Source of the DNA: Pseudomonadota bacterium
GTDB taxonomy: Bacteria; UBA10199; 2-02-FULL-44-16; JBDRGF01
Reading direction: 5' to 3'
DNA: 64,000 nucleotides
Assembly (NCBI GenBank): GCA_043818055.1
Contig: JBDRGF010000060.1
Span: 516 to 64,515, forward strand
The notes under the pieces are model-generated. The model was not told the origin of the DNA. It made no database searches and saw only the letters and a list, made by a program, of their open reading frames with translations. Positions 854 to 54,639 of the stretch are shown one piece after another (positions within the stretch are counted from its first letter, which is position 1; each line of letters starts with the position of its first letter). The translations under genes and the position numbers were made by a program.

Positions 854-868
854 TGGCACAGTCATTGC
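854..868 (+). promoter_or_regulatory. sigma54 (-24/-12) promoter TGGCAC-N5-TTGC
   Basis: The sequence cTTGGCACagtcaTTGCTataat matches the RpoN consensus TGGCACG-N4-TTGCW. It lies about 100 bp upstream of the 966 ORF. Confidence 0.55.
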
Positions 869-6792: not shown

Positions 6793-6801
6793 GTTGTCTC
6801 C

Positions 6802-7509: not shown

Positions 7510-7511
7510 GT

Positions 7512-23975: not shown

Positions 23976-24245
23976 CCTCTCCTCCTTGGTTGTTGGTTTC
24001 ACCCCATGTAAAAGCAATGCCCGTGCCAATGAGGTCGAGAAATAATAATCAACAATATCAACAGGTTATGTTTTTAGCGATTTTTTAGGATCATGCAATT
24101 TAACGAAAATTAACCAAACATAGCCAATTCCAACCTCCGGGGTTGGAGGTGATCGGTTGATTGCAAAGGCGTGAATGGAAGGTTGTTTAGTAAGGAGTAA
24201 TTATGCCCTCTTGATGAGTCAATCCCAAACTTAGTTGATATTTTG

Positions 24246-26595: not shown

Positions 26596-26610
26596 TGGCA
26601 CGCATCTTGC
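26596..26610 (+). promoter_or_regulatory. sigma54 promoter TGGCACgcatcTTGC
   Basis: Perfect -24/-12 elements, 26 bp upstream of the 26636 ORF. Confidence 0.55.
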
Positions 26611-31386: not shown

Positions 31387-33225
31387 ATGAGAAGGGCATT
31401 TCTTACAGAGCTGAATGAAAACGGAATTTTGGCCGATGGAGCCATAGGGACCGAGCTTTACAAGCGCGGCATGTTTCTGAACCGCTGCTATGATGAGCTC
31501 AATATCTCCCAGCCGGAATTGATCAAGGGTATTCATCGCGAATATATCGATGCCGGCTCTCACCTAATCGAAACAAACACCTTTATTGCAAATCGTCCCG
31601 CCCTCTCCGCGCACGGCCTTGAGGATAAGGTGAGGCTTATCAATCTTGCGGGTGCGAAGATTGCCAGAGAGGTTGCGGGAGATGATATCTATGTTGCAGG
31701 CTCTGTAGGGCCGCTGCGATGGGCATTTAAGGGAAGAAACCTTACTGACGCTGATCTCGACTCAGCATATCGCGAACAGATCGAGGCGCTTGCTGAAGGT
31801 GGGGTTGACGCGATAATCTTTGAAACCTTTACATCGATCTCGGAGCTAGAGGCTGCTTTCAAGGCAGCAAAAAAGGTTTGTAATCTTCCGATGGTCACGC
31901 AGGTCACGCTCAAATATCTTGGCGAGGGGATGTTCACCGGAATCGATCCTCAGATGGCCGCCTGCAAAATGCAAGCCTGGGGCGCGGATGTCATAGGAGT
32001 CAACTGCTGTGACGGACCTCAGGGGGTCTTTGAGGCGGTGAAGGAGATGGCAAAGGTGACGAAGAGGCCACTCTCGGCAATGCCTAATTGCGGATTGCCG
32101 CAGGTTGTTGAGGGAAGGCTCAGATATTTGGCAACGCCGGAATATATGGGGGAATACGCGAGGCGTTATGCGCAGGCGGGGGTGCGTCTGATAGGTGGGT
32201 GCTGCGGAACCACGCCGGATCATATTCGCGAGATGGCAAAATTTCTGAAATCGGTGAGACCTGTGACGGTCAAAACGCCCGAAAAAGAGTGTGTGGGTGT
32301 AAAAGAGGCTCAGCCGGAGAGAAAAAGAATAAACCCCTCTCATAAGAGTCAATTTGGCAACATGCTGGGTAAAAAGTTTCAGATTTCAGTTGAGTTATAC
32401 CCACCACTTGGAACGGATACTCAGAAGGCCATCGATGGTGCTAAAATGCTTAAGGATTTTGGCGTCGACGCTGTCAATATTGCCGACGGTCCACGCGCTA
32501 TGGCGCGGATGAATCCTATCGCGATGGCAGTTATTCTGAAACAGAAGATGGATATTGAGGTGATAGTTCATTACTGCTGTCGTGACAGGAATCTCTTAGG
32601 CATGCAGATGGATCTCTTGGGGGCGGTGGCGCTTAACCTCAACAACATGCTCTTCATCACAGGAGATCCGCCAAAGATGGGAAACTATCCGAACGCGACG
32701 GCGGTCTTTGATATCGATTCGATAAGCCTGATACGCTTTGCCGACAACATGAATAACGGAATGGACTTTGCGAACCGTCCGCTGGGCGGGAATACAAAAA
32801 TTCTCATAGGCTGCGGCGTAAATCCCGGGGCGGTCGATTTGGATATCGAAGTGGAGAGATATAAACAAAAGGTAGAAGCCGGGGCCGAGTTTGTCTTTTC
32901 ACAGCCGAGTTTTGATGTAAAACTTTTGGAGGCCTTTTTCAAAAAGACCTCCGATGTGAGAGAGATCCCATTTTTTGTCGGAGTCCTGCCTCTCGTATCA
33001 CTAAGAAACGCCGAATTCCTGGACAACGAAGTCCCCGGCATGCAGGTCCCAGACCAGATCATGAAAAAGATGAAAGAGGCCAAGTCGAAGGAAAAACAGC
33101 TGGAAGTAGGTCTTGCGGTCGCAAGGGAATCTCTTCAGGCTGCAAAAGGCATGGACCGCGTCAAAGGCGCCTACATCATGCCACCGTTTGGAAGGTATGA
33201 ACTCATCAAATCGCTTATCAGGTGA
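31387..33225 (+). CDS. bifunctional homocysteine S-methyltransferase / methylenetetrahydrofolate reductase
   Basis: N-terminal Hcy-binding domain with GGCCGTTPDHI; C-terminal MetF-like TIM barrel. Confidence 0.8.
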   Translation: MRRAFLTELNENGILADGAIGTELYKRGMFLNRCYDELNISQPELIKGIHREYIDAGSHLIETNTFIANRPALSAHGLEDKVRLINLAGAKIAREVAGDDIYVAGSVGPLRWAFKGRNLTDADLDSAYREQIEALAEGGVDAIIFETFTSISELEAAFKAAKKVCNLPMVTQVTLKYLGEGMFTGIDPQMAACKMQAWGADVIGVNCCDGPQGVFEAVKEMAKVTKRPLSAMPNCGLPQVVEGRLRYLATPEYMGEYARRYAQAGVRLIGGCCGTTPDHIREMAKFLKSVRPVTVKTPEKECVGVKEAQPERKRINPSHKSQFGNMLGKKFQISVELYPPLGTDTQKAIDGAKMLKDFGVDAVNIADGPRAMARMNPIAMAVILKQKMDIEVIVHYCCRDRNLLGMQMDLLGAVALNLNNMLFITGDPPKMGNYPNATAVFDIDSISLIRFADNMNNGMDFANRPLGGNTKILIGCGVNPGAVDLDIEVERYKQKVEAGAEFVFSQPSFDVKLLEAFFKKTSDVREIPFFVGVLPLVSLRNAEFLDNEVPGMQVPDQIMKKMKEAKSKEKQLEVGLAVARESLQAAKGMDRVKGAYIMPPFGRYELIKSLIR

Positions 33226-33267
33226 ATTTATAAAAATGCTTGACCATGCTCCATAAATGGCGTACAT

Positions 33268-34443
33268 TTGTGGAGTATGTTCCATAGACTACTTAACCCG
33301 CTTAAATCTAATAGTTTTTTTATATTTGGTGCAAGAGGCACCGGTAAAACCACATTTCTAAAGAGTTTTTTTTCAAACATCAAGACTATCTGGATAGATT
33401 TATTAGATCCGACAGTGGAAGATAATTACTCCCGCCGGCCAAATCTACTTGGCCAACAGATAGAGGCAGTTTTGGGAGATATCGAATGGGTTGTTATAGA
33501 TGAGATTCAAAAGACCCCAAAACTTTTAAACCTGGTTCATAAGTATATTGAAGAATATAATATTAAATTTGCTCTTACGGGATCCAGTGCAAGAAAACTT
33601 AAAAGAGGCTCAGCTAATCTGCTAGCTGGCAGAGCATTTATGAATTATCTTTTTCCGCTCACGCATGTAGAGATGGGAGAATTTTTTGACTTAGGATCTG
33701 CCTTGCAGTGGGGAACATTGCCAAAGGCAGTTCTTTTAAATAGTCCTGAAGAAAAGAAAGCATTTTTGGATGCATATGCACTTACTTATTTAAAGGAGGA
33801 AATCTGGGGGGAACATATCATCAGAGAGCTCGATCCATTCAGAAGATTTTTGGAGATTGCGGCTCAGATGAATGGGGAGGTGATTAATTATACAAATATT
33901 GGGAAAGATGTCGGCGCTGATACAAAGACCATACAATCCTATTTTGAGATATTAGAGGATACACTTATAGGGACATTGTTAGAACCATTCCATTTATCCA
34001 TTCGGAAAAGACAGAGAAAGAATCCAAAGTTTTATTTCTTTGATACAGGGGTCTCGAGAGCTCTGGAAAAAACTCTGCTTCAACCTCTTTTGCCGAACAC
34101 CTTTTCCTTCGGAAAAACTTTTGAGCACTTTATTATATCAGAGGCGCATAGGTTGAATGTATATCATAATCTTGATTTTCAGTTTTCATATTTAAGAACT
34201 AAAGAGGATGCGGAAATCGATCTTATCATTGAGAGGAGAGGCATGCCCACAGCCCTTGTCGAGATCAAGTCAACAGACTCCATCGATGAAAGACACACAA
34301 GAACTCTTGAGCTGTTTTTGAAAGATTTAAAAAATGCCCAGGGTTACTGTTTTTCAAGAGATCCCATTCGCAAAAAAATAGGTCATGTCAACGTCCTCCC
34401 TTGGCAGGAAGGTTTAAAGCAAGTAGGGCTTTTGGGGAAATAA
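33268..34443 (+). CDS. AAA-family ATPase with a DUF4143-type C-terminal domain
   Basis: P-loop GARGTGKTT; COG1373 architecture; this is where AT-rich composition begins. Confidence 0.7.
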   Translation: MWSMFHRLLNPLKSNSFFIFGARGTGKTTFLKSFFSNIKTIWIDLLDPTVEDNYSRRPNLLGQQIEAVLGDIEWVVIDEIQKTPKLLNLVHKYIEEYNIKFALTGSSARKLKRGSANLLAGRAFMNYLFPLTHVEMGEFFDLGSALQWGTLPKAVLLNSPEEKKAFLDAYALTYLKEEIWGEHIIRELDPFRRFLEIAAQMNGEVINYTNIGKDVGADTKTIQSYFEILEDTLIGTLLEPFHLSIRKRQRKNPKFYFFDTGVSRALEKTLLQPLLPNTFSFGKTFEHFIISEAHRLNVYHNLDFQFSYLRTKEDAEIDLIIERRGMPTALVEIKSTDSIDERHTRTLELFLKDLKNAQGYCFSRDPIRKKIGHVNVLPWQEGLKQVGLLGK

Positions 34444-34489
34444 TAAGAACATGTTGGGAATCAAAGAAACACATGGTATTGGTAGATAA

Positions 34490-35035
34490 TTACAAATACC
34501 AGCCCAAGTGAAGATAACCTATAGGTGCATAAAAATTAGTTCCACCGATTCTGTGGTAACCAAAGCTTATCTCTGGTGAAAGAACAAAATGTTTTGTCAT
34601 TCTAAATTCATATCCTGCACCAGTACTGAAGCCAAAACCCATTTTTGTATCCATTTGGGCGCCTCGGTCATTATACCGGGCATCTGAAAAACCAACGCCT
34701 GCGTTTGCATAAAAATTATTCCACAAAAAGACCTGGGTCTTTGCCTGTCCTGAGAGAAGCATCATTGTCCTCATTTCTCCACCAATTTTACGCCTGGTGA
34801 AGAGGCTGGAATCATCATAATAAAGAGATATTTTTTCATTGAACGCATAGCCGATTCTAAAACCAAGACCACCTGCAACCATCTTTATATGATTTGTTTC
34901 TGTTCCTACCATGGGACCGAATCCAATTAAGAACCCCTTTCTATTTGCAAACTCTTTATCCTCAGCACTTGCCGCATTGATAATGACAAAAGAAAAAATG
35001 AGAAGTGATAAACCCAAAATGAACGTTTTACGCAT
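34490..35035 (-). CDS. small outer-membrane beta-barrel protein (OmpW/OmpA-like)
   Basis: Signal peptide, alternating amphipathic strands, aromatic C-terminus. Confidence 0.55.
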   Translation of the reverse strand: MRKTFILGLSLLIFSFVIINAASAEDKEFANRKGFLIGFGPMVGTETNHIKMVAGGLGFRIGYAFNEKISLYYDDSSLFTRRKIGGEMRTMMLLSGQAKTQVFLWNNFYANAGVGFSDARYNDRGAQMDTKMGFGFSTGAGYEFRMTKHFVLSPEISFGYHRIGGTNFYAPIGYLHLGWYL

Positions 35036-35084
35036 ATGGATCTCCTTTTAAGGTATTAATGAATGTGATTTGTAGCATATTAGC

Positions 35085-35096
35085 GGGGGGGGGGGG
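35085..35096. repeat. G12 homopolymer tract about 50 bp upstream of the OMP start codon
   Basis: Counted directly: 12 consecutive G. Confidence 0.9.
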
Positions 35097-35223
35097 CAAT
35101 AAAAAAATTGATAGTTTGTTAGGGGCATCTTGCTTTAAGATCTATAGGAGAGGCTGTGTTTTTACCACATACCACATGCGCTTTTTTAAGGTCAATTTTC
35201 ATATCAATATCAATTTTTAACAT

Positions 35224-35259
35224 TGTCCGGACTGTAGTCTAGGATTCCGGACATTTTTT
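35224..35259 (+). terminator. hairpin TGTCCGGA...TCCGGACA plus T6
   Basis: Seen directly. It follows a 14-codon ORF (35179-35223); this may be a small transcript upstream of the cluster promoter. Confidence 0.35.
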
Positions 35260-35327
35260 GTTCATATCAAAATTACACCAAACATCAAAACTCTGATATA
35301 TCAACAAGTTATCCTCCTTAATAATCT

Positions 35328-35342
35328 TGGCACAACAATTGC
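35328..35342 (+). promoter_or_regulatory. sigma54 promoter TGGCACaacaaTTGC driving the AT-rich cluster
   Basis: cTTGGCACAacaATTGCTATA is nearly identical to the promoter at 854; it lies 76 bp upstream of the GTG at 35418. Confidence 0.6.
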
Positions 35343-35417
35343 TATATGGATTTCCAAAGCTCAGGCAAAAACAATTATAACTACTGATATAAAATGTAAC
35401 AATAAGCGGAGGATGCT

Positions 35418-36554
35418 GTGACTGGCCATAATGCCTATACCCCAAACAAAATAGCAAATGATCATCTTCGATCATATACAACTTCTAACTTAAATATTTT
35501 TGAAAGACCGCCGTCTTATTCTTCTTGTAGTTCCCCCATTCGTTATGAAATCCGTAAAGGTCTTTTAGCTGGAAAGTATGTAGGTAGAGTAGTTGTTTTT
35601 CTTAGAGGCGCAGGATGTGAATGGATGAAAACTGGTGGTGGTTGCACCATGTGTGGCTTTCATTTGGCGACGAATGCAGGAGTGAAAATAAATGATGAAG
35701 CTCAATTTGAACAGGTAGAAAAGGCTCTGAATGAGACTCGTAAATATCATTTTCCCATATTATGCCTTTATAACGATGGTAGTTTTTTAAATGCTAATGA
35801 AATATCCAGAGGGGTTGTTGCCAAAATTTTAAACTTAATAAATAAATCTACCTGGATAAAAAAACTAGTCGTTGAAAGCAGGCCGGAATATATCACCGAT
35901 GAATCATTATTATTCGTCAAAAATCATCTTTCTATTGATTTTAAAATTGCAGTAGGACTTGAGACCACCTCTGACCAGATCAGATATAATTGTCTTAATA
36001 AAGGCTTTTCATTGGAGGATTTTAAGAGAGCATTTATGACGATCCTCTCTTATGGCTATCAAATCAAGCCACTTCTGCTAGTTAAACCACCCTTCTTAAC
36101 TGAAAGGGAGGCCATTGATGATTGTGTCAATTCAATTGGCCAACTAAAAGACATGGGAGTGCCCGCTGTTGATTTGGAGATTATGACTATTCAGGAGGGG
36201 ACACTCGTTTATAAATTATGGCAAAAAGGTTTGTATGCAACACCTTCATTGTGGTCTGTTTTAGAAATTATTTCAAAAAGCCCAAGTGATTATCCAGTAT
36301 ACATTAGTCCTATACAATATTCAGTTGATCAGTTTTTCCAAATGGCAAACTGTAGAGTTTGTTTTGAAGCAATATCAAATAAGATAATCAATTCATATAA
36401 TGTAAATCTGAATAGACAAGAGCTCTTAGTCTTGGTCAATAGGTTCGATTGTTTTTGTAGGCATAACTGGCAAGAAAAACTGAAGGAACATGATGATAGA
36501 CCATTAAAACTTCGAAGCACAGAGATGATTAAGATTCTGAAAGGAAAACGCTGA
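35418..36554 (+). CDS. radical-SAM-like enzyme with non-canonical Cx8Cx2C spacing
   Basis: GAGCEWMKTGGGCTMCG cluster, plus C-terminal CxxC and CFC; GTG start with a GGAGG RBS. Confidence 0.45.
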   Translation: MTGHNAYTPNKIANDHLRSYTTSNLNIFERPPSYSSCSSPIRYEIRKGLLAGKYVGRVVVFLRGAGCEWMKTGGGCTMCGFHLATNAGVKINDEAQFEQVEKALNETRKYHFPILCLYNDGSFLNANEISRGVVAKILNLINKSTWIKKLVVESRPEYITDESLLFVKNHLSIDFKIAVGLETTSDQIRYNCLNKGFSLEDFKRAFMTILSYGYQIKPLLLVKPPFLTEREAIDDCVNSIGQLKDMGVPAVDLEIMTIQEGTLVYKLWQKGLYATPSLWSVLEIISKSPSDYPVYISPIQYSVDQFFQMANCRVCFEAISNKIINSYNVNLNRQELLVLVNRFDCFCRHNWQEKLKEHDDRPLKLRSTEMIKILKGKR

Positions 36555-37729
36555 TGAATTTGAAAAAGAAATCCTGGGTAGAAATTAGCAGAAATAAATT
36601 GCTTAGCAATATTGCAACTATAAGATCCTGTGTTGGAAATAATCAAAAAATAGGTGCAATGTTAAAAGGTAATGCTTATGGGCATGGTATTTTAGAAACT
36701 CTCGAATGCATTGCTCATGAAGTGGACTTGTTTTGCGTAATTGCGCCTGAAGATGCAATCAACATACACAGGTATCTGTTGAACAATAATATAAAAGGTA
36801 AAAGAATATTGGTTGTTGGCCCGGTAAACGAAACAGAGATTATATCTCTTTGCGATGCAGGGGTAGAAATAGCTATTGCAGATTTGGGATGGGAATCATT
36901 TATTTCAAAGCTTAAAAAATATTCGCTAAAAAATAAGATAAAAGTACATATATACATCGATACAGGACTTGGAAGAGAAGGGATTGCTAACAATGACCTT
37001 TCAAGCCTTTTGTTTCTAGAAAGAGCTAAAGATCTAATAGATATTGTTGGAGTAATGACCCACTTTTCAAATGCAGACATTATTGGCCCTCCTGAATATG
37101 CAAAATTACAACTTGAAAACTTTTATAAAGGTATTGATGTTCTTCGTTCATTAATCTCTGGGAGTGAGAAGTGGCAATTTCATACCTCTGCTAGTTCCCC
37201 TTCACTTCTGTTTCAGGATGCAATTGGTGATTTCATACGTCCAGGAATTGGTCTATATGGGCATTGGACTTCACCGGAAACGGAGTGGAGTTGTAAAATA
37301 AAACACCAAAGATCTGTAATGTTAATGCCGGCGCTCAGTTGGAGATGTGAAACCCAGATCATAAAAAGATTAAACGCTGGATGTGCTACTGGTTACGATC
37401 TTGCCTATATATGCCAAAAACCAATGACAATAGGGGTTTTGCCAATTGGTTACTATGACGGTTATCCATATCAGGCTAGTGGGAAATCATACGTTTTGAT
37501 TAAAGGAAAACGATGTCCAATTCTTGGCAATATCATGATGAATAATATTGTTGTTGATTTGACAGATATTGAAGTATCTTCTTCTATCGAGGAACAAGCG
37601 GTTGCTACATTGATTGGAAATGACGGTGATGAAACTATTACAGCAGAAATGGTTGCTAAGTGGTCAAACAGCATCAACTATCAAGTATTGACAGGAATAG
37701 GAGATCACTTAAAAAGAATAATAGTATGA
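36554..37729 (+). CDS. alanine racemase family PLP enzyme
   Basis: PLP-lysine motif AMLKGNAYGHG; fold-type III N-terminal barrel plus C-terminal domain. Confidence 0.75.
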   Translation: MNLKKKSWVEISRNKLLSNIATIRSCVGNNQKIGAMLKGNAYGHGILETLECIAHEVDLFCVIAPEDAINIHRYLLNNNIKGKRILVVGPVNETEIISLCDAGVEIAIADLGWESFISKLKKYSLKNKIKVHIYIDTGLGREGIANNDLSSLLFLERAKDLIDIVGVMTHFSNADIIGPPEYAKLQLENFYKGIDVLRSLISGSEKWQFHTSASSPSLLFQDAIGDFIRPGIGLYGHWTSPETEWSCKIKHQRSVMLMPALSWRCETQIIKRLNAGCATGYDLAYICQKPMTIGVLPIGYYDGYPYQASGKSYVLIKGKRCPILGNIMMNNIVVDLTDIEVSSSIEEQAVATLIGNDGDETITAEMVAKWSNSINYQVLTGIGDHLKRIIV

Positions 37730-37759
37730 AAAATAGTAAGTAAGGGTAAAGGTAAAGCA

Positions 37760-38869
37760 ATGAATAATGAAATTTTAGCACAAGCAAATGAAGTTTCTAA
37801 GTCCTATCGACAGGTCAATAGAGGGAAATCATTTTTTGATTCTTTAAAGAACATATGGAATCCCTCATATACAGAAAAAGAGGCTCTTAAAACACTTTCT
37901 TTTTCTATCAAGAGAGGAGAAATAGTTGGACTTCTTGGTCCCAATGGTGCGGGCAAATCAACCTTCGTAAAGATACTTTGTGGTTTAATTGTGCCTACCA
38001 ATGGAAATGTTGCTGTCATGGGACATGATCCCAGCGATAAAGATTTTAATTTAAAACATCATCTTGGAGTGATTTTTGGGCAAAAATCATCACTATGGTG
38101 GGATCTTTCGATTAAGGAAAATATTAAAATATTTGCAGCCATTTATAATAAACAGTCAGTTATTGATCAAGAGTGGATAGAGCAGTTGATAACCAGGCTG
38201 GATCTCAAACATGTGATTGATACTCCTATTAGAAATTTAAGCCTTGGTGAGCGAGTAAAAAGTGAACTGGTTTCTGTCTTGCTCTATAAACCTACGCTCT
38301 TGGTTTTAGATGAACCTACAATAGGACTGGATGTAACTTCAAAGAAAGAAATAAGAACACTATTGAAGGAATTGGCGAGTGAGCAGGGAATGTCCATTTT
38401 ACTGACTTCACATGACATGGTAGATATTGAAAGCTGTTGCCAAAGGGTTGTGATAATAGATAAGGGAGAAAAAATATTTGAAGGTTCTATTTCAAATTTG
38501 AGAAAGCAGATTGACCCACTAAAAACAATTATTGTCAGATTGCCAATACAATCTAAAGAGAACGAATTAAATTTAGAAAGTATAATTAAAAATAAATTAG
38601 AATATCTTAGTAATAAATATCCTCTGAAAATATCTATTTCTAATTCATTAGTCGAAACTCTAGGTTGCATATACCCAAACAATGGTGTGTCGGAAGATTC
38701 CATTATTCAAATTGACTTAGAGGAAAAATATTCCAGCAGTGTTCTTGGGGTATTGCTAGGGATAGAAAATGATCTGGATATTGAGATCAGACCGCGGTCA
38801 TTAGAATCGTTAATCGTTAAATTTTTCAAAGATAACAAGGAAGCGAGTGAATCAAGAACGGGACCCTAA
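37760..38869 (+). CDS. ABC transporter ATP-binding protein with an approximately 120-aa C-terminal extension
   Basis: GLLGPNGAGKST, LSLGERVK, LVLDEPTIGLD. Confidence 0.85.
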   Translation: MNNEILAQANEVSKSYRQVNRGKSFFDSLKNIWNPSYTEKEALKTLSFSIKRGEIVGLLGPNGAGKSTFVKILCGLIVPTNGNVAVMGHDPSDKDFNLKHHLGVIFGQKSSLWWDLSIKENIKIFAAIYNKQSVIDQEWIEQLITRLDLKHVIDTPIRNLSLGERVKSELVSVLLYKPTLLVLDEPTIGLDVTSKKEIRTLLKELASEQGMSILLTSHDMVDIESCCQRVVIIDKGEKIFEGSISNLRKQIDPLKTIIVRLPIQSKENELNLESIIKNKLEYLSNKYPLKISISNSLVETLGCIYPNNGVSEDSIIQIDLEEKYSSSVLGVLLGIENDLDIEIRPRSLESLIVKFFKDNKEASESRTGP

Positions 38870-38878
38870 AGGACAGTA

Positions 38879-39706
38879 TTGACCATGAAGATAAATGATA
38901 AATCATTTTTCAATATGCCAATGGCATTGATTAAAACAGGACTGAAATTAGTTTTGTGTGATAGAGGAATGTTTATAACTGATTTTTTTCTTGCAACTAC
39001 ATTGCCTTTTCTTGTCCAGTATCTTGTCTGGTCATATGTCTATAATTCCAGGGGAATAGAGTCTATTTCGGGTTACTCATACGTCACAACAATAACATAT
39101 TATGCATTGGCAATCTTGATAGGCCGATTCAATAATGGCTATGTGGTGATTACTAAGAATGCCAATGAAATTCATGAAGGGCAATTGGAGCTGAGAATGG
39201 CAAGGCCTTTTACATTGTATCAAAAGAATTTCTTTGAATTTCTCGGAGAAAGCCTTCTTTATATCATTCCTGTGGTTATTTCGATTATTGTGTGTGCAGT
39301 TGTCTGCTTCAAATCAATCTATCTTAATCCTCTTTTTTGGATACTACTGATTCTACAATTGGTTTTATCTCAATTTCTTATTTTTAACCTCTCATGGATA
39401 TTAGCAGGAAGCACCATTTGGTTGGTGAGAGGTTTTTTTATGGCTAATTTGCTAGCGGCTTTTCAATCATTTTTTGGTGGAGAACTACTCCCAGTAGCAT
39501 TTTGGCCTTCATGGTTGATTCCTATTCTAAAATATAATCCCTTTTATTTTATTAACGGTGCAATTATAGATTCCTTCCTCCACGGAAACGAGATCGTATT
39601 AATCACTAACTGTTTCTATACTCTTGCTTATGCCTGTGTCCTATTTTTCATCGGAAAAGTTGTGTGGAGCTGTGGTTTGAAAAAATATTCTGGAGCAGGG
39701 GGGTAA
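38879..39706 (+). CDS. ABC-2 type transporter permease
   Basis: 6-TM hydrophobic profile, adjacent to the ATPase. Confidence 0.6.
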   Translation: MTMKINDKSFFNMPMALIKTGLKLVLCDRGMFITDFFLATTLPFLVQYLVWSYVYNSRGIESISGYSYVTTITYYALAILIGRFNNGYVVITKNANEIHEGQLELRMARPFTLYQKNFFEFLGESLLYIIPVVISIIVCAVVCFKSIYLNPLFWILLILQLVLSQFLIFNLSWILAGSTIWLVRGFFMANLLAAFQSFFGGELLPVAFWPSWLIPILKYNPFYFINGAIIDSFLHGNEIVLITNCFYTLAYACVLFFIGKVVWSCGLKKYSGAGG

Positions 39707-39708
39707 TT

Positions 39709-40512
39709 ATGATAAGCAAAGTAAAAAGAAAGATGCAGGGTAATATAATATCGAAATTAATGAAAGCAGCTTTGGGAGAGCAAATAGCTTATCGGTTAGA
39801 TTTAAGTTTAGACTTATTATTAGTGCTATTAATAAATGGGCTCAGGATTGCGGTTGTTGAGGCCATTATGATACATACTTCGTTGCTGGCCACTTGGAGT
39901 AAAAAAGAAATAGAAATTCTATACTTGATTGCCTTAGTGATGTCACTTTTTGTGGATTCTTTTTTAAAAAGTGTTCAACATTTTATTCATGAATATCATC
40001 GAGGAATAATAACACCTCAACTCTTAAGACCATATTCCATGACAAAATTGATTTTGCTTAGATGGATGAAACCCGCGCACGCTCTGACAGCGTTGATTTT
40101 GATGATTCCAGTATTTTACTATGGGATAGGAGGTGTAACAAATATTTCAATAGATTGGATGAGTTTATTTTGGGGAATATTTTCGTTTGTTTTAGGAGTT
40201 ATTACCATTGTTCTTTTCTCTGTTTCCCTTCATTTGATCAGTGTTTTTGCAGTAAGAGAGCTACCAATGGATTACATATTCTTTCACCTATATAGATTTT
40301 CTTATTGGCCAATTGATATCTTCCCTAAAGCGTTCCAGTTTTTTTCTATTGTAATGCCAGTGCTTGTTTGTAGTAGTGTTGCATCTGCATTTTTATCAAA
40401 AGGAAGCTCCCCCTACTTATATCTACTGGTGCTTTCTTCAATTTTTTCGTTCGTAGTCTTTAAAATAATGACAATAAAGATTAGGGGGAGATTGTCACTT
40501 ATCGGAGGATAA
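39709..40512 (+). CDS. ABC-2 type transporter permease (second)
   Basis: Hydrophobic multi-TM protein; start moved to ATG 39709, which has an RBS. Confidence 0.55.
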   Translation: MISKVKRKMQGNIISKLMKAALGEQIAYRLDLSLDLLLVLLINGLRIAVVEAIMIHTSLLATWSKKEIEILYLIALVMSLFVDSFLKSVQHFIHEYHRGIITPQLLRPYSMTKLILLRWMKPAHALTALILMIPVFYYGIGGVTNISIDWMSLFWGIFSFVLGVITIVLFSVSLHLISVFAVRELPMDYIFFHLYRFSYWPIDIFPKAFQFFSIVMPVLVCSSVASAFLSKGSSPYLYLLVLSSIFSFVVFKIMTIKIRGRLSLIGG

Positions 40513-40571
40513 GTGAAGCAGTATAGCCTTTAGAATTTAAAAACAAGAATTTGAATAAAAAGAGGTGAATT

Positions 40572-42005
40572 ATGGTCTATGATATAAAATTTCATAATTT
40601 TGAGGATCCAATCATAGCAAAATATAGTGTTTTTCCCACAAGCAGGACTCCCGAAACTCTGGAGCAACAAATTGATATTCTATCAAAGTGGAATAATGAA
40701 AAAGAGAAAATGCATAATCGAACTAAGTGGAGCGTGGAAGATTTAAATAAATTGAAAATTCAGCAGCTAAGCGTTTTAGTAGATCACGCTTTTAATAATG
40801 TTGTTTTCTATCATGAGCTCTATAAAAAATTTGGTTTTCAAGCAGGGGAAATTAGATCCTGGAAAGGCTTTGGTTCCCTTCCAGTTATTAACAAAATAGA
40901 TTTGGCAAACAACTTTCCTGATAGAATTGTGGCTAAAGGATATGTTCATAATAAGTTGCATGGGGCTAGGACATCTGGTTCAAATGGAATGCCTGTAACA
41001 ATTGTGTCTGATTGGAACAGGGTGGCTCAAGATACTATTGATCGAATGAGAATGTTTGAAATTATGATGTCATCTTCAATTGATGAGAACGACTGGAGGT
41101 ATTGTATAGATTATTCTCCATGGTGGATATCATCCTTTGTTGGAAAGTATAGATCATATACTGTTCACTTAAATTGTCCAATTGATAAGATTGTAGAGCA
41201 TATTCGAAAACTCAAACCTACTGTTGTTTGCGGTGTAGGTAACATGATTATTGAAATAGCATCTCGGTTGCCAGACGCTAAACAATTAGGAATAAAATGT
41301 TTTTCTTCTAATAGCGAGACTACATCTATTGATCAGAGGAGAAAGATTTCATCTGATATTGGTGTTCCAATACTTGATGAGTATTCCTCAGAAGAGCTTG
41401 GCTTGATTGCAACTGAGTGCAATTATGGTGCATACCATGTGGTGGAAGATTCCTGTCATGTTGAGCTGTTGTCATTAGAAGATAATAGCGAAACCAAAAC
41501 CGATGATTTAGGCAGAATAATTGGGACTGGCATGTGGAATATGGCAATGCCGATTATTCGCTATGATCAGGGAGATTTGGCAGAGTGGAGTACGTCAGGA
41601 GAGAAGTGCGCATGTAATCAAACATTTAGAAGGTTTAAATGTTTTCACGGTCGATCAGATCAGGCTCTTTTTAGTCCAGTATATGGTTTAGTTCCTCCTA
41701 TTAAAATTTTAGCAATCATGGATAACACTTTAGCTTGCACAGATTCTGGATTTTTATGTTTTCGTTTGATACAGAAAGCATTTGATACGCTAGAGCTATA
41801 TGTTGTTGTTGAAAACGATAAGAGAGAACTCAATATGAAGTTGTTTGAAAAGTTCAAAACAGACATTAACGCTCTCTTTAAATATAATATGACTATTAAA
41901 AACTTGTTTGTTGATGAGTTGCCACCTGGGAATAGCTATAAAAGAAAAACTATCGTTAATGAAATTCCGAAAAATAGTTTGAAAGAAAGGTGTTTAACCA
42001 AATGA
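40572..42005 (+). CDS. PaaK/CapK/F390-synthetase-like adenylate-forming ligase
   Basis: ANL motifs TSGSNGMP (P-loop) and YDQGD (A8-like); about 450 aa, typical of the phenylacetate-CoA ligase family. Confidence 0.6.
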   Translation: MVYDIKFHNFEDPIIAKYSVFPTSRTPETLEQQIDILSKWNNEKEKMHNRTKWSVEDLNKLKIQQLSVLVDHAFNNVVFYHELYKKFGFQAGEIRSWKGFGSLPVINKIDLANNFPDRIVAKGYVHNKLHGARTSGSNGMPVTIVSDWNRVAQDTIDRMRMFEIMMSSSIDENDWRYCIDYSPWWISSFVGKYRSYTVHLNCPIDKIVEHIRKLKPTVVCGVGNMIIEIASRLPDAKQLGIKCFSSNSETTSIDQRRKISSDIGVPILDEYSSEELGLIATECNYGAYHVVEDSCHVELLSLEDNSETKTDDLGRIIGTGMWNMAMPIIRYDQGDLAEWSTSGEKCACNQTFRRFKCFHGRSDQALFSPVYGLVPPIKILAIMDNTLACTDSGFLCFRLIQKAFDTLELYVVVENDKRELNMKLFEKFKTDINALFKYNMTIKNLFVDELPPGNSYKRKTIVNEIPKNSLKERCLTK

Positions 42006-42901
42006 AAATAGCAATTATTCATGACGAGATACATCCTCTAATAAATCAGGTTGTATCTGGGCTTGCAGAGAAAAACATAGAGGTTCATTTATTGTTATGG
42101 AATGACTTTAAATATCAATGCTCTGATGGTGTAATTGAAATATTTAATAAAGATCAGAACCTCTGTGGTTTTGATAAAATCTTTCTTGAGAGAGCTGGAG
42201 AGGAATCGCCTAGTTATTATACTCAACTCAGACTGCTTAAAATCGCCCAAAGCATGGGATGTAAGATTTTTAATGATCCATATGCGTATGAGCGTGCGCG
42301 AGATAAGGCTTCTGCGACTTTAATTTTATCTAAAAATTTACTTCCAGTACCACCAACGATTTTGGTTCACAATATAGAAGAGATTCAAGATTTTATATCA
42401 CTACATAAAGATGTAATTTGTAAACCTATACTGGGCCATAGTGGAATAGGTATCCTACCATTTTCTGAAAAGAATATTCCTTTTGATAAATTACAGGAGT
42501 TGCTTGTTAAAGATGGAGTGATGTTGCTGCAAAAATATATCAAAGGTCATTATCAGAGAGATGTTAGAGTAGATGTGGTGAATGGAAAAATTGCTCAATG
42601 TTATTATCGTTACGCTAATGACATCTCTCAGTTTCATGGTGACTATGTGGTTTGTAATGTGGCAAGAGGTGGACGGCCAGCTTTTATTGACGCTCCAAGT
42701 GATGCTAGAAAATTGGCGCTTGCAGCGGCAAAGTGTTTAGATTTGGTTGTTGCAGGAGTGGATTTTATAGAAAACGAAAACGGAGAGCTTTTTATATCTG
42801 AGGTTAACCCAGAACCTAACATGCCAGGAACTGAAGGTGTGGCATTTCCAAAAGCAATATCCAATTTTCTTTCTATTCCTTTTATAGAGGAAGAGAACTA
42901 A
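42002..42901 (+). CDS. RimK-like ATP-grasp ligase
   Basis: ICKPILGHSGIGI; GVDFIENENGELFISEVNPEP. Confidence 0.65.
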   Translation: MKIAIIHDEIHPLINQVVSGLAEKNIEVHLLLWNDFKYQCSDGVIEIFNKDQNLCGFDKIFLERAGEESPSYYTQLRLLKIAQSMGCKIFNDPYAYERARDKASATLILSKNLLPVPPTILVHNIEEIQDFISLHKDVICKPILGHSGIGILPFSEKNIPFDKLQELLVKDGVMLLQKYIKGHYQRDVRVDVVNGKIAQCYYRYANDISQFHGDYVVCNVARGGRPAFIDAPSDARKLALAAAKCLDLVVAGVDFIENENGELFISEVNPEPNMPGTEGVAFPKAISNFLSIPFIEEEN

Positions 42902-42902
42902 A

Positions 42903-44234
42903 ATGTTCAAAGAAGCTAATTCCTCCATTGAATGGGATCAAAGTATCAATGAAGAAGATGTCAAATGGTTGATAAGTTTACAGAAGAAATATTCATTTCT
43001 ACCATGCTGTCGCAATCTTGAAAATATGTTGCTTAGGCCTGTTATTTTGGATCAAGTAGCTTATCAGCAAATGCAAAATGTTGCTGCCAATGCGATAAGG
43101 ATAACGGTAGAGGTTTTTAAAAAAACTTATACCGATGCTAAAGCCCTTGCTAAGGAAAATGGAATTGATAGCAGGTTGATGGATTTTTTTACGGATAGTT
43201 TAAATTCAAATCTCTGGACATTGATGATGGCCAGGCCAGATATTATCATTGATAAAAATGGTAATATTAAAGTTATTGAACTCAACATTGAACCTTCTAT
43301 TGGAGGACTTGTTGATTGTACCGTTTTACCAGATGAATATATTAATGGACCCTCTGGCAATAAAGTAATAAAAAAAACTCAGCTACGCTTTGATCGGCCA
43401 CTCGTAGAAATGGCGGCAATGCTGCGAAATTTGTGGGGCAGCTTAGGCAATAATTCTACTCCTAATGTTGCTTTGATCGAATATCAATACGACGTATTGG
43501 TAAATCAGTTACAAGCAGAAATACTTTCAGGCATGGGTGTTTCCACATCATATGTAAGGCCATGGGAATTAAATATTAAAGCTGGGGAACATGGTCTTTA
43601 TTATGGAAATAAATTGATTGATATTGCCATAAGAAATTTTCCACTCGATGTCCCTTCAAGTGATGAAGAAATATTATCCCTAAATACTTTGTTGAAAAGT
43701 TACCAGGATAAACATGCTTTCCATTTACCAGGAGATGCAACTAGCATCATCGCTAATAAAAAATCATTTGCTTTAGTATGGGAACATATTGAGTTTCTTT
43801 CTATGTCCGATCAGCTCTTTGTTAAAAACCATATACCTTATACGAAACTTCTAACAAAAAAGACTTTGGAAAGGCATGAGGCATTTGGCAATAAAGATTT
43901 ATGGGTATTGAAAAAAAGTATCGGGCATGGCGGAAAAGATGTTCTTATTGGAAAGGATGCGGCGTCTGATAAACTATGGAATCAGATTCTCAATGAGAGA
44001 GCCTCCTCCAGGGAATATGTTATGCAAAATTTTATAGAACCATCACAAGTTGTTTTACCATTTGTGAAACAAGGTTGTTTATATAAGCAAAAAGTGGACA
44101 TAATCTTTGGTCAATATGTTTTTGGAGATCGAGCGGGAGGGACTCTTGTACGATTCAAAAACTCAGACGCAGGGGGTGCTATCAATGTCTCTCGAGGGAC
44201 TGGAGCATGTTTTTGTCTAATAAAAGCGTCATAA
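42903..44234 (+). CDS. second ATP-grasp-type ligase (GspS/circularly-permuted-like)
   Basis: DIIIDKNGNIKVIELNIEP and KKSIGHGGKDVLIG segments. Confidence 0.4.
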   Translation: MFKEANSSIEWDQSINEEDVKWLISLQKKYSFLPCCRNLENMLLRPVILDQVAYQQMQNVAANAIRITVEVFKKTYTDAKALAKENGIDSRLMDFFTDSLNSNLWTLMMARPDIIIDKNGNIKVIELNIEPSIGGLVDCTVLPDEYINGPSGNKVIKKTQLRFDRPLVEMAAMLRNLWGSLGNNSTPNVALIEYQYDVLVNQLQAEILSGMGVSTSYVRPWELNIKAGEHGLYYGNKLIDIAIRNFPLDVPSSDEEILSLNTLLKSYQDKHAFHLPGDATSIIANKKSFALVWEHIEFLSMSDQLFVKNHIPYTKLLTKKTLERHEAFGNKDLWVLKKSIGHGGKDVLIGKDAASDKLWNQILNERASSREYVMQNFIEPSQVVLPFVKQGCLYKQKVDIIFGQYVFGDRAGGTLVRFKNSDAGGAINVSRGTGACFCLIKAS

Positions 44235-44247
44235 TAACTCTGTTGTT

Positions 44248-52684: not shown

Positions 52685-54610
52685 ATGAAGATTAAACAAC
52701 TTATAATATTGATAATCGCATTATCCCTGTTTTTTTTAATTTCGATCAGCATTCTGGGATATATACAGACTAGCTACATTCAAAACAGACTCGTCAAAAT
52801 CAACGATCATTTTGCCCCTTTGGTAAAAAAGATAGGAGATCTGAGTTTTCAACAGAGGGAACTCAATACAAATGTGGACAGATTTATTGAGTTCAACCTT
52901 CTTCAAGAGGGATCGGGAGCGGGGTTGAAGGGAAAAGAGAGGGCGTTGCTTAATGACTCGCTGGAAACAAGTTCGAAAATGATAAAGGAACTGAAGGAAT
53001 CTGTTTCAAAAAAATTTGGGGTAGCCAAGAAGTGGATAATCTCGAGATCGGCGATAGCTGACAAAAAAAGATATTCAGAAGAGATAGGAATAATTGAGGA
53101 AAATCTGAAAGATCTCGAAAATGGCTATGTTCCATATTTGAATAAAGCGGAAAATATAGTTAATCAGATTGAGTGGAAGAAAGAATATCAGACTCAATCC
53201 ACGAGAGAGGATATGCAGATCGAGGGAGCTAATATCATCGCCAATCTCGATAACATCGGTTCAGGATTTGAAAAGATAATAGAAGGATCGATCAATAACC
53301 TTGAAAAAAATGAGAGGATATCACAGAAAGTAATCCTGGGAATGCTTGTCCTGGTGGTAGGGTTATATGCTTTTATAATAATATATTATGTGTTGCAGTT
53401 GTTTAAGAGTATACGCTTGGCCATAATCAAGGCACAGCAAATTGCTTCAGGAATGGCCTCTGTAGATGTTCATCTTCCATGTGAAGATGAAACAAGTTTG
53501 ATTCTTGGGTCTGTAAAGAAGATCAGAGAGTCGCTTGATGAGATCGGTAATAATCTCGAAATATGTAGTGATCAACTCAACGGTATCAATGAAGCCTCCA
53601 AGGACGCGGTGATTATTTTGGATGCGGAAAGAAAAATTCAGTTTTGGAGCAGTTCAGCCGAAATAATGTTTGGAAGGAGTATCGACGAAGCGAAAGGCCT
53701 TGTTTTCGATTCAATCTTTCCTTACCAACAATGTGAATCGATTTTTGCTGCGGATAATTCTGGAGAGGGAGATGTCGGCGGTACTAAGATCCTTGGGGGG
53801 ACTAAACAGCTGGAAGTGGCACGGAAAAACGGTTCTGAATTTCCTATTGAATTGTCTATCTCTGCGATGAAGATAAAAAACAGATGGAACTCTATTTGCA
53901 TCGTGAGGGATATATCGATTCGCAAACAGCTCGAAAGTTTAAGAGATGAACTGATAAGGATGATCATACATGATCTCAAAGGTCCACTGACTGGGATTTT
54001 ATCCTCATCTGAAATTCTGATGATGCCCGGTGTTGATCCTGAAAAAAGATTAAAGTTTTTGAAGATGATAAATATCAATTCTAAAAAGCTCGCAAATATG
54101 ATCATGAATCTGCTCGAGATCAGAAAGATGGAGGAGAAGGAACTCAAACTCAATAAGGAGGTTTTTAGAGGAAGCGATGTTCTTGAAGGAATATCATGGC
54201 TTAGGGATATGGCGTTGAGTGAAGAAAAGAACCTGAAAATAGATATACCAGAAAAAATTACATTATATACGGATAAAGGCCTTTTGATTCGTGTTCTTGA
54301 AAACCTGATAACAAATGCCATTAAGCATACTCCCAGCAAGGGCGATATAGTAGTGAACGCTAAAGAGGAGGATGAAAAGATTTTAATTGAAGTGATAGAT
54401 ACAGGGGAGGGGATTCCAAAGGAGAATATACAACATATCTTCGAAAGATTTTTTATGGTCAAAACACAAACTTTAAGATCTAAATTTGACACTGGGCTGG
54501 GGCTATCATTCTGTAAAATGGCGATAGAAGCCGATGGCGGTGAGATCAATGTCGAAAGTGAAGTTGGAAAAGGCTCAAGGTTTTATTTTTATATTTCAAA
54601 TCCAAAATGA
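52685..54610 (+). CDS. sensor histidine kinase (TM, coiled-coil, PAS, HisKA, HATPase)
   Basis: H-box MIIHDLKGPLTGI; N/G boxes NLITNAIKHT and GLGLSFCK. Confidence 0.85.
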   Translation: MKIKQLIILIIALSLFFLISISILGYIQTSYIQNRLVKINDHFAPLVKKIGDLSFQQRELNTNVDRFIEFNLLQEGSGAGLKGKERALLNDSLETSSKMIKELKESVSKKFGVAKKWIISRSAIADKKRYSEEIGIIEENLKDLENGYVPYLNKAENIVNQIEWKKEYQTQSTREDMQIEGANIIANLDNIGSGFEKIIEGSINNLEKNERISQKVILGMLVLVVGLYAFIIIYYVLQLFKSIRLAIIKAQQIASGMASVDVHLPCEDETSLILGSVKKIRESLDEIGNNLEICSDQLNGINEASKDAVIILDAERKIQFWSSSAEIMFGRSIDEAKGLVFDSIFPYQQCESIFAADNSGEGDVGGTKILGGTKQLEVARKNGSEFPIELSISAMKIKNRWNSICIVRDISIRKQLESLRDELIRMIIHDLKGPLTGILSSSEILMMPGVDPEKRLKFLKMININSKKLANMIMNLLEIRKMEEKELKLNKEVFRGSDVLEGISWLRDMALSEEKNLKIDIPEKITLYTDKGLLIRVLENLITNAIKHTPSKGDIVVNAKEEDEKILIEVIDTGEGIPKENIQHIFERFFMVKTQTLRSKFDTGLGLSFCKMAIEADGGEINVESEVGKGSRFYFYISNPK

Positions 54611-54639
54611 TTTTAAAAACCTCTTAACGGGCGAGTGTA

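Follow-up and report, generated by a model that had tools for sequence, protein, structure and literature searches.

A 64,000-nucleotide stretch of a metagenome-assembled genome from a Pseudomonadota bacterium (assembly GCA_043818055.1, contig JBDRGF010000060.1, positions 516 to 64,515; locus tags ABIE74_05165 and ABIE74_05175), here called the window, carries an operon of eight genes at 35418–44234. We consider it fairly probable that the operon was acquired horizontally, depends on sigma-54, and directs the synthesis and export of a small non-ribosomal pseudopeptide in which non-ribosomal peptide synthetase (NRPS) machinery has no part. The genes, g1 to g8, encode a radical S-adenosylmethionine (SAM) enzyme of the TIGR01210/RaSEA family (g1), a pyridoxal phosphate (PLP)-dependent racemase (g2), the three subunits of an ABC-2 type ATP-binding cassette (ABC) transporter (g3–g5), and three ligases of different families (g6–g8). 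An earlier note on this DNA, made from the sequence alone, had proposed ribosome-independent assembly by ligases, with a racemase supplying a D-amino acid and export through the ABC-2 transporter. The core of that proposal is upheld by the domain assignments, by a structural model of g8 and by the synteny of related clusters; three of its details, a Wzt-like tail on the ATPase, an unusual cysteine motif in g1 and the uniqueness of the gene combination, are not.

The pathway would run as follows. RNA polymerase carrying sigma-54 would bind a -24/-12 site at 35328–35342, with an enhancer-binding activator needed for transcription. The g2 racemase would provide D-Ala or D-Ser. The g6 ligase would adenylate a carboxylic acid and couple it straight to an amine, and g7 and g8 would both work through an acyl phosphate formed from a carboxylate, each adding a further amino acid or amine, so that the three ligases could form up to three amide bonds. 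The g1 enzyme would tailor either a building block or the assembled peptide, and g3–g5 would export the product. The substrates and the order of the steps are our proposal, drawn from the kinds of enzymes encoded.

Organization and composition of the operon

The operon consists of eight tightly packed open reading frames (ORFs), all on the forward strand, as the earlier note had described. Neighboring genes overlap by up to 43 nt or are separated by up to 59 nt. With the internal ATG codons at 39709 and 42002 as the starts of g5 and g7, the two larger overlaps would give way to a gap of 2 nt and an overlap of 4 nt. The operon is distinctly AT-rich. In 1-kb steps its GC content is 0.335–0.366 across 35–44 kb, against 0.44–0.51 at 31–33 kb and 44–49 kb, and GC at third codon positions (GC3) is 0.26–0.34 in the eight genes against 0.34–0.60 in 20 other genes of the window (Mann-Whitney p = 6e-7). 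In a 400-bp profile GC falls from about 33.2 kb and recovers at about 44.2 kb; the low-GC island (33200–44240) thus also includes two genes upstream of the operon. The AT-richness that had been noticed earlier is therefore real, although the flanks are not uniformly near 50% GC as had been stated, the right flank being only about 0.43–0.48. Judged by its composition, the operon appears to be foreign and horizontally acquired.

Among the Pfam matches of the eight proteins there are no NRPS, lanthipeptide or SPASM domains, in keeping with the earlier note's remark that NRPS, lanthipeptide and sactipeptide hallmarks are absent, and no condensation, adenylation (AMP-binding), carrier or ketosynthase domains. 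Hidden Markov model (HMM) searches of each protein, one of the checks suggested in that note, give domain assignments that mostly agree with those proposed there.

The three ligases

The first ligase gene, g6 (40572–42005, 477 aa), encodes a PaaK-like adenylate-forming (ANL) ligase, as had been read from the sequence (PaaK/CapK-type). Its PDB matches are phenylacetate-CoA ligases (E = 1.7e-15), the PaaK-like ligase 6siw (E = 2.7e-9) and AjiA1. In an alignment of 22 sequences (A1), the TSGSxGxP-type loop (G136, S137, G139) and the C-terminal K457 are invariant. Scores against the PaaK equivalogs are 72–73 bits, far below the cut-offs of 646–700, and g6 is best assigned only to the PaaK-like branch of adenylate-forming enzymes. 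The operon encodes neither a coenzyme A (CoA)-dependent acyltransferase nor a carrier protein, from which we infer that g6 forms the amide directly; it is probably an amide-bond synthetase. Direct ligation is known for PaaK-like enzymes among its PDB matches. The PaaK-like family also has near-invariant cysteines, C283, C346 and C348 (the last two as CxC), which may form a metal site; such cysteines are not known as a feature of PaaK enzymes.

The second ligase, g7 (41990–42901, 303 aa, with ATG 42002 as a possible start), is an ATP-grasp enzyme of the RimK family, as had been suggested: it matches Pfam RimK with 75.1 bits against a cut-off of 21. Its score against TIGR00768 is below the cut-off (131.4 against 143.4 bits), and its best NCBIfam matches are alpha-L-glutamate ligases, all below cut-off (MptN, 145 bits).

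The third ligase, g8 (42903–44234, 443 aa), had been described as a second ATP-grasp-like ligase, and structure prediction now places it in the fold of the eukaryotic glutathione synthetases, GspS and Cp1B. By sequence it is elusive. Its own Pfam matches are all sub-threshold, although members of its family match GSP_synth, CP_ATPgrasp_1/2 and GSH_synth_ATP, a look-up of its exact sequence in assemblies gave no match, and a word-indexed homologue search found only g8 itself; an exhaustive HMMER search found 935 relatives. The AlphaFold2 model, built on 41 relatives, has a pLDDT of 93.5. Its Foldseek matches include 3kal (E = 1.7e-17), one of the eukaryotic-type glutathione/homoglutathione synthetases; human glutathione synthetase matches with a TM-score of 0.69, and Cp1B (9cjn), GspS and YgiC/YjfC are also found. 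The circularly permuted ATP-grasp fold is thus shared with eukaryotic-type glutathione synthetase, GspS and YgiC/YjfC (TM 0.6–0.69), but sequence identity is only 11–17%, and the setting of g8 is a biosynthetic operon and not thiol metabolism. The best PDB sequence match of the family profile is Cp1B (E = 6.8e-10). R111, D113, E126 and N128 are invariant in the g8 family and form the pattern R-x-D...E-x-N, as do R139, D141, E163 and N165 of Cp1B, and the R-x-D (RPD) part is directly aligned between the family profile and Cp1B. Replacement of these four Cp1B residues by alanine abolishes or strongly reduces activity (PMC12568646). The fold match and the conserved catalytic pattern together indicate that g8 is, as modeled, a competent acid-amine ligase of the glutathione-synthetase fold.

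Ligases of these families need not act on free small molecules. [quoted passage not shown] RimK, LysX/ArgX and graspetide maturases are indeed among the weak matches of g7 and of the g8 model, and radical SAM enzymes are common RiPP tailoring enzymes. The scores do not favor this: graspetide maturase HMMs give 25–40 bits on the cluster against cut-offs of 350–425, the LysX scores are likewise far below cut-off, and the closest relatives of g8 act on small molecules. Nor is there a candidate substrate. No credible small ORF for a precursor or carrier was found in or beside the operon, whose internal gaps are at most 59 nt; the earlier note had likewise reported no precursor peptide. A 53-aa ORF at 35059–35220 was rejected as a precursor: it lies upstream of the promoter, covers a poly-G tract and has nothing in its favor. 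A leader peptidase is likewise missing from the Pfam matches of the eight proteins, as are SPASM and RiPP-recognition domains. We regard this alternative as very improbable, and a small-molecule product as the better account of the three ligases.

The racemase and the transporter

The g2 protein (36554–37729, 391 aa) is a PLP-dependent alanine/serine racemase. It has both Pfam domains, Ala_racemase_N and Ala_racemase_C, and exceeds the cut-off of the alr equivalog TIGR00492 (233.8 bits, cut-off 168), which bears out the earlier assignment to the alanine-racemase type. Its best PDB match is the VanT-type serine racemase 4ecl (E = 5e-49), and the PLP lysine (KxxAYGHG, in AMLKGNAYGHG) and the catalytic tyrosine of the GY motif are conserved in the alignment with 4ecl. 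From these matches, both D-Ala and D-Ser are possible products.

The next three genes encode an ABC-2 transporter. The g3 protein (37760–38869, 369 aa) is an ABC ATPase of the DrrA/ABCA type (ABC_tran, E = 6.5e-31); a regulatory extension some 100 residues long follows at its C-terminus, with a conserved tail that ends in PSLExxxxxF(K/R). The two permeases, g4 (38879–39706) and g5 (39664–40512, with ATG 39709 as the likelier start), both match ABC2_membrane_6 (PF06182, E = 2.2e-10 and 5.6e-12). Orthologues of g4 adjoin the ATPase gene in 14 related loci, and the triplet of ATPase and two permeases likewise occurs in 14. The earlier note was right about the ABC-2 transporter and the C-terminal extension, but the tail is not Wzt-like. 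Against PDB sequences, the g3 family profile aligns end-to-end with NosF and with the second nucleotide-binding domain (NBD2) plus regulatory (R) domain of ABCA4; no Wzt chain is among the 60 best matches listed for that profile, and Pfam Wzt_C gives no match. The tail is thus of the ABCA/NosF type.

Putative sigma-54 promoter and upstream region

A -24/-12 site of the sigma-54 type, TGGCAC-N5-TTGC, lies at 35328–35342 on the forward strand (TGGCACAACAATTGC). It matches the consensus exactly and ends 75 nt upstream of the first start codon, a GTG at 35418 that has GGAGG 5 nt upstream; the earlier note, which placed a canonical promoter at 76 bp, had described the same site. Exact matches occur four times in the 64-kb window, where 0.08 are expected, and none of 100 shuffles reached four. 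The other three are at 854–868 (+), 24014–24028 (-) and 26596–26610 (+). A gene for an NtrC-type sigma-54 activator is present at 19203–20603, about 15 kb from the operon. This gene and the enrichment of sites indicate that the organism uses sigma-54 promoters, and the operon, by its promoter motif, is a good candidate for sigma-54 control.

An inverted repeat, AACATTGTCCGGA-N14-TCCGGACATTTTT, is found at 35219–35258, 70–110 bp upstream of the -24 element; within the same interval it can also be written TGTCCGGA-N14-TCCGGACA. By its position, the palindrome could be a binding site for an enhancer-binding protein, or alternatively a terminator-like hairpin. Upstream of the first gene, sigma-54-like sites are also found in three relatives: an exact match at 39 nt in L009, one with one mismatch at 58 nt in L016, and one with two mismatches in L015. 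No such motif was found upstream of the clusters in L105 or L159/L160, and a match inside the Bartonella locus was discarded as probably due to chance, since it lies within a coding region. Promoter-like sites for sigma-70 and terminator-like sites within the operon are not above shuffled expectation. Rfam gives no element in 34.0–45.5 kb, which speaks against a riboswitch or leader RNA there.

Related clusters in other genomes

The genomic contexts of the PaaK-like ligase were compared in nine loci and then in 80 species-level genomes and 80 metagenome contigs; the contigs were gathered with the PaaK-like alignment, and neighbors were compared by tblastn and ORF clustering. Relatives of g6 are 28–46% identical to it, and the PaaK-like ligase is almost always accompanied by ATP-grasp ligases, from one to three in number, and by an exporter. 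The exporter is either an ABC-2 transporter with the same ATPase and permeases or a pump of the major facilitator superfamily (MFS) or MatE type. Such ligase-exporter clusters occur in Bacillus thuringiensis, Bartonella, Photorhabdus, Xenorhabdus, Brenneria, Pseudomonas, actinomycetes and Oligoflexia, and the PaaK-like ligase also anchors clusters in gut Clostridia.

The genes that would supply the building blocks vary around this core. They encode an aminotransferase and a 2-hydroxyacid dehydrogenase in Bacillus thuringiensis, Bartonella and a spirochaete, and a SAM decarboxylase and an aminopropyltransferase in Photorhabdus, Brenneria, Trinickia and Pseudomonas silvicola, the latter two enzymes being fused in Xenorhabdus and Oligoflexia. 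The actinomycete clusters have a different supply set behind a SARP-type regulator. The combination of variable supply genes with a constant ligase-exporter core, together with the exchange of ABC-2 for MFS or MatE exporters, points to a defined small molecule rather than a polymer.

This evidence bears on a second alternative, that the operon makes a surface or extracellular poly-amino-acid or an amino-acid-decorated polymer, for example a poly-alpha-glutamate added by the RimK-type ligase to an acyl or D-amino-acid primer, and exports it as capsule and teichoic-acid exporters do. RimK-family enzymes can add successive glutamates, and the best NCBIfam matches of g7 are alpha-L-glutamate ligases; in other systems, polymers are exported by ABC-2 transporters; the Pfam label 'CapK_C' is attached to distant PaaK-like relatives; and the same island has, upstream, a divergently oriented gene for a small outer-membrane beta-barrel protein. 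The ATPase tail, however, is of the ABCA/NosF type and not the polymer-recognizing Wzt type, the Pfam matches in the island include no glycosyltransferase, polymerase, lipid-carrier or anchoring gene, and the pumps that replace ABC-2 in related clusters are small-molecule pumps. Three different single-step ligases also fit a defined short product better. We consider a polymer very unlikely, and a short exported pseudopeptide the more plausible product.

Two independent metagenome loci repeat the set of genes seen in the window, at 32–43% identity. L105 has the radical SAM enzyme (37%), the racemase (41%) and the PaaK-like ligase (33%) in the gene order of the window. L159/L160, two contigs with identical DNA, have an IS110 transposase, two permeases, the ABC ATPase (38%), the radical SAM enzyme (35%), the racemase (43%), the PaaK-like ligase (32%), RimK (32%) and an ATP-grasp_4 ligase. 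The GC content of these loci, 0.35–0.37, is akin to that of the window island. Related sets are found in an Oligoflexia locus (L015) and a Bdellovibrio locus (L016), which have, in slightly varying order, a radical SAM enzyme, a Cys/Met-family PLP enzyme, a PaaK-like ligase, two ATP-grasp_4 domains and ABC-2 genes; in L016 the two ATP-grasp_4 domains are fused into a single protein. Looking elsewhere for the trio of radical SAM enzyme, PaaK-like ligase and ATP-grasp ligase, as the earlier note had advised, thus gave a positive result. Mobility is also suggested by the IS110 transposase of L160, by an integrase in L015 and by L009, which adjoins the 3' end of a tRNA. To judge from these loci, the combination is a recurrent, mobile cluster type and not a one-off.

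Ligases of the g8 family are found in the Photorhabdus-type clusters (hhalign probability 99.8%), in L009 and in L010, as well as in L005, and more weakly in Bartonella. The 416-aa ligase of L160 was rejected as g8-like (probability 0.2%). Also in L160, whose cluster is the one most like that of the window, about 1 kb without a convincing ORF (6554–7578) separates the racemase gene from the PaaK-like gene; it might represent a gene in decay, a regulatory stretch or an RNA. The L009 cluster starts directly after a tRNA gene 3' end and a terminator-like hairpin (1–560), which suggests island insertion at the tRNA.

Two other cluster types were encountered. Photorhabdus (L024, L025), Brenneria (L022), Trinickia (L018) and P. 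silvicola (L007) share a conserved cluster, at about 7.5–18 kb of these loci, with the SAM decarboxylase, the aminopropyltransferase, a 369-aa protein, the PaaK-like ligase, an ATP-grasp_4 ligase, an ABC-2 exporter and an FA_desaturase-like protein, to which a g8-like ligase is added in the Photorhabdus and Brenneria loci. The 369-aa protein, which ends in FGGSFHCATLDVRR, has no Pfam match and is amidinotransferase-like by eye. This cluster recalls the phevamine type of polyamine conjugates. Metagenome-assembled genomes of gut Clostridia have a conserved operon encoding a glyoxalase-like protein, the PaaK-like ligase, a RaSEA-like radical SAM enzyme, a PALP enzyme, an aminotransferase, an arginase-family protein, an ABC protein, an Orn/DAP decarboxylase and a further ABC protein (L043, L049, L050, L052-L054, L056-L058, L060-L063 and L070; e.g., L050 at about 9–20 kb). 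It looks like a pathway for an amino-acid-derived metabolite with a resistance gene.

The RaSEA-family radical SAM enzyme

The g1 protein (35418–36554, 378 aa) has no Pfam match at E <= 0.01. It passes the NCBIfam equivalog TIGR01210 (RaSEA), if marginally, with 216.1 bits against a cut-off of 212.15. It is 34–36% identical to Methanoculleus proteins named RaSEA by NCBI and 37–48% identical to a few metagenomic proteins. Its Cx8Cx2C motif (C67, C76 and C79, within GCxW...GGCTMCG), which the earlier note had correctly seen in a radical-SAM-like enzyme but called unusual, is invariant in every aligned family member, including the Methanoculleus RaSEA-named proteins; it is therefore a signature of the TIGR01210 family and not an oddity. 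A second set of cysteines, CxxC...CxC, is found near the C-terminus. The only significant PDB sequence relative of g1 is queuine lyase (6p78, E = 2e-5), a radical SAM enzyme that cleaves a C-N bond.

To our knowledge, the only documented reaction of the RaSEA family is the final step of archaeosine formation, and the literature on RaSEA/TIGR01210 that we found concerns tRNA only. RaSEA works with ArcS/ArcTGT on preQ0-tRNA, where it strips the lysine that its partner ArcS has put on preQ0 to leave an amidine, and it is active only in complex with the partner that first attaches the lysine (PMC11298593). The g1 enzyme resembles the euryarchaeal ArcS-RaSEA system in passing TIGR01210, in having the Cx8Cx2C motif and most of the C-terminal cysteines, and in being genetically tied to an enzyme that attaches substrates through a C-N bond. 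It differs in that its host is bacterial and its context is an exported-metabolite operon, not tRNA modification. There is no ArcS- or ArcTGT-type gene among the annotated ORFs of the window, and no ArcS/TGT-type domain shows up when the cluster and the majority of large ORFs at about 19–61 kb are scanned with Pfam. Lacking the ArcS/tRNA context, g1 is probably not a functional RaSEA orthologue. In a rough neighbor-joining tree, which carries no support values, g1 groups with L010, P0271 and P0272 in a small clade (biosynthetic contexts in L010 and P0272) that lies beside but outside the Methanoculleus RaSEA group, and the radical SAM enzymes of Clostridia form a separate clade of 22.

In 24 of the 80 genome loci and 40 of the 80 metagenome loci, the flanking DNA examined around the PaaK-like gene contains a g1-like gene, nearly always right beside the PaaK-like one. 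Loci with both a RaSEA-like and a PaaK-like gene span Oligoflexia, Bdellovibrio, Clostridia, Bacilli and one archaeal metagenome-assembled genome, and their radical SAM enzymes fall in two clades. Relatives of g1 also occur without the PaaK-like ligase: L010 has a PALP enzyme, the radical SAM enzyme, a g8-like ligase, a B12-radical SAM enzyme and RimK, L011 has the radical SAM enzyme, an aminotransferase and an MFS pump, and L012 is a Paenibacillus polyketide synthase (PKS)/NRPS locus. A 492-aa protein of L010 was rejected as PaaK-like (hhalign probability 0.8%). That g1-like genes are tied to the ligase, and more often to an adjacent PLP enzyme, suggests amino-acid-derived C-N radical chemistry.

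A more specific version of the proposed pathway, with a chemistry that would be new, pairs the radical SAM enzyme with the PaaK-like ligase in a dedicated module of two enzymes, after the manner of ArcS-RaSEA. A sacrificial amino acid, for instance lysine via its epsilon-amine, would first be joined to a carboxylate by the ligase. The radical SAM enzyme would then act on this small molecule, either splitting the C-N bond so that a primary amide or amidine is left or performing related radical C-N chemistry, and the products of the other genes would extend and export the result. This would account for the RaSEA HMM match and the invariant cysteine motif, for the relationship to queuine lyase, for the frequent proximity of the two genes across genomes and metagenomes, and it would parallel the need of RaSEA for a partner that attaches lysine first (PMC11298593). 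In the window, however, g1 and g6 are four genes apart. The radical SAM gene more often neighbors a PLP enzyme gene, namely a racemase (window, L105, L160), a Cys/Met-family enzyme (L016), a PALP enzyme (L010 and the Clostridia type) or an aminotransferase (L011), and radical chemistry on a free amino acid fits equally well. Many PaaK-like clusters also have no radical SAM gene, and L010-L012 have the radical SAM gene without the ligase. We therefore hold the two-enzyme module to be quite unlikely as it stands. A broader view is that RaSEA-family enzymes, at home in the modification of archaeal tRNA, were taken over by bacteria for making small molecules. Together with a PaaK-like ligase and a PLP enzyme they would form a conserved module for radical chemistry at C-N bonds, with, for example, a ligated amino acid as sacrificial nitrogen donor. 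They would define a new and phylogenetically widespread class of NRPS-independent natural products from gut Clostridia to predatory Oligoflexia, with this operon as one member under sigma-54 regulation. We think this, taken as a whole, unlikely.

The archaeal affinities of RaSEA and of the F390-synthetase/PaaK-like and MptN-like proteins raise a further alternative, that the operon serves the modification or salvage of a metabolite of the nucleoside or cofactor type, for instance a 7-deazapurine or a cofactor that carries glutamate. The best named relatives do include RaSEA (tRNA archaeosine), queuine lyase, a 'CoF synthetase' and the tetrahydromethanopterin:glutamate ligase. But scores against the MptN and PaaK equivalogs fall far short of the cut-offs, and among the annotated ORFs at about 19–61 kb there is no transglycosylase, preQ0 or pterin/flavin biosynthesis gene. 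A racemase and an exporter are also ill-suited to a cofactor pathway, and bacterial RaSEA-like genes are found in secondary-metabolite contexts (the Paenibacillus PKS/NRPS locus L012, and the PLP enzyme and exporter sets of L010, L011 and Clostridia). This is the least probable of the readings considered here, and the synthesis of an exported pseudopeptide fits the gene set better.

Comparison with known pathways

The literature searched, which is incomplete, contains analogues of the operon and no described pathway with this gene combination, which is weak evidence of novelty; the earlier note had not recognized the combination either, and no characterized pathway matches it. Dapdiamide (DdaG/DdaF/DdaI), bacilysin, rhizocticin and tabtoxin are made by stand-alone ligases, and dapdiamide, like E-64, combines an ATP-grasp enzyme with an adenylate-forming amide synthetase. 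In the mangotoxin pathway (mboA-F), two ATP-grasp ligases build a tripeptide and an oxidase makes the warhead (PMC13185094). The E-64 pathway (Cp1A-D) pairs the ATP-grasp enzyme Cp1B with an amide-bond synthetase (PMC12568646), and phevamine (hsvABC) is a small peptide assembled by free-standing ligases (PMC6187163). These pathways share with the operon, as it is read here, a short peptide-like product, a tailoring oxidoreductase, dedicated efflux, and the absence of both NRPS and precursor peptide. They differ in having no RaSEA-family enzyme, no racemase of the alanine type, no ligase of this PaaK-like clade and no ABC2_membrane_6 exporter, and a sequence relationship was seen only between g8 and Cp1B, where it is distant.

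The closer likeness is to the clusters described above. Those of B. thuringiensis (L001), Bartonella (L003), L024/L025, L015/L016, L105 and L159/L160 have an orthologous ligase core and an ABC-2 exporter at 30–46% identity, and L159/L160 and L105 also have the adjacent radical SAM-racemase pair of the window. L001, L003, L024/L025 and L015/L016 differ in their supply genes (aminotransferase with 2-hydroxyacid dehydrogenase, polyamine-synthesis enzymes, or PLP enzymes of the Cys/Met family), and L159/L160 differ in that their third ligase is of the ATP-grasp_4 type and not of the glutathione-synthetase fold. On sequence grounds, the operon appears to belong to a large, widespread and uncharacterized cluster family and not to any named stand-alone-ligase pathway.

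Several points weigh against the pathway that we propose. Function is assigned throughout from homology and synteny, and the eight proteins are about 25–46% identical to their nearest relatives, none of which is characterized. The g6 enzyme could instead make an acyl-CoA, as a CoA ligase, for use by some enzyme encoded outside the operon, and RimK-family enzymes can also modify proteins or cofactors. Sequence does not fix the direction of transport, so that export rather than import is presumed, and no gene for an enhancer-binding protein is adjacent to the operon. The source being a metagenome-assembled genome, the low-GC island may also reflect chimeric binning; against this, the island is internal to a single contig and has host-like genes on both sides.

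Neighboring features

The two upstream genes of the low-GC island encode an AAA ATPase of the AAA_14/DUF4143 type (33268-34443, +) and, divergently, a small outer-membrane beta-barrel protein (34490-35035, -), both assigned by Pfam. The ATPase matches the PADLOC candidate single-gene defense family PDC-S01 (E = 7.8e-58), and a defense gene may thus accompany the biosynthetic operon in the island. The operon itself was rejected as an anti-phage defense system: PADLOC gave only generic ATPase similarity for g3 and nothing for the other seven proteins. About 50–60 bp upstream of the start of the beta-barrel gene there is a run of 12 G (35085-35096), which could be a slipped-strand phase-variation tract or an artifact of metagenome assembly. 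Farther away, a Mutator-family transposase gene (24267-25565, -; Pfam E = 6e-37) lies about 8 kb upstream of the island, and a second AT-richer stretch (52685-56628; GC 0.37–0.40, GC3 0.40–0.42) encodes a PAS histidine kinase and a transglycosylase-domain protein.

Implications

Among the small peptides that free-standing ligases assemble are potent antimetabolite toxins, protease inhibitors and virulence factors. Genome mining by standard rules largely misses the clusters that make them, because the NRPS, PKS and precursor-peptide hallmarks are absent. The kind of pathway proposed here, NRPS-independent peptide biosynthesis by ligases, is already known and there is no sign yet of a new principle; if the product is an ordinary dipeptide- or tripeptide-like metabolite, it will be a useful but routine addition to the catalogue.

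The operon nevertheless offers a concrete handle on a large uncharacterized family that is anchored by one clade of PaaK-like ligases and reaches hosts of medical, agricultural and ecological relevance, among them Bartonella, Photorhabdus/Xenorhabdus, Bacillus thuringiensis, Pseudomonas and the Clostridia of human and animal guts. Its most interesting element is the recruitment of a RaSEA-type radical SAM enzyme, whose reaction is possibly new. The operon points to a role for this enzyme family outside tRNA modification, and its product, if identified, could reveal new radical chemistry and a new class of compounds.

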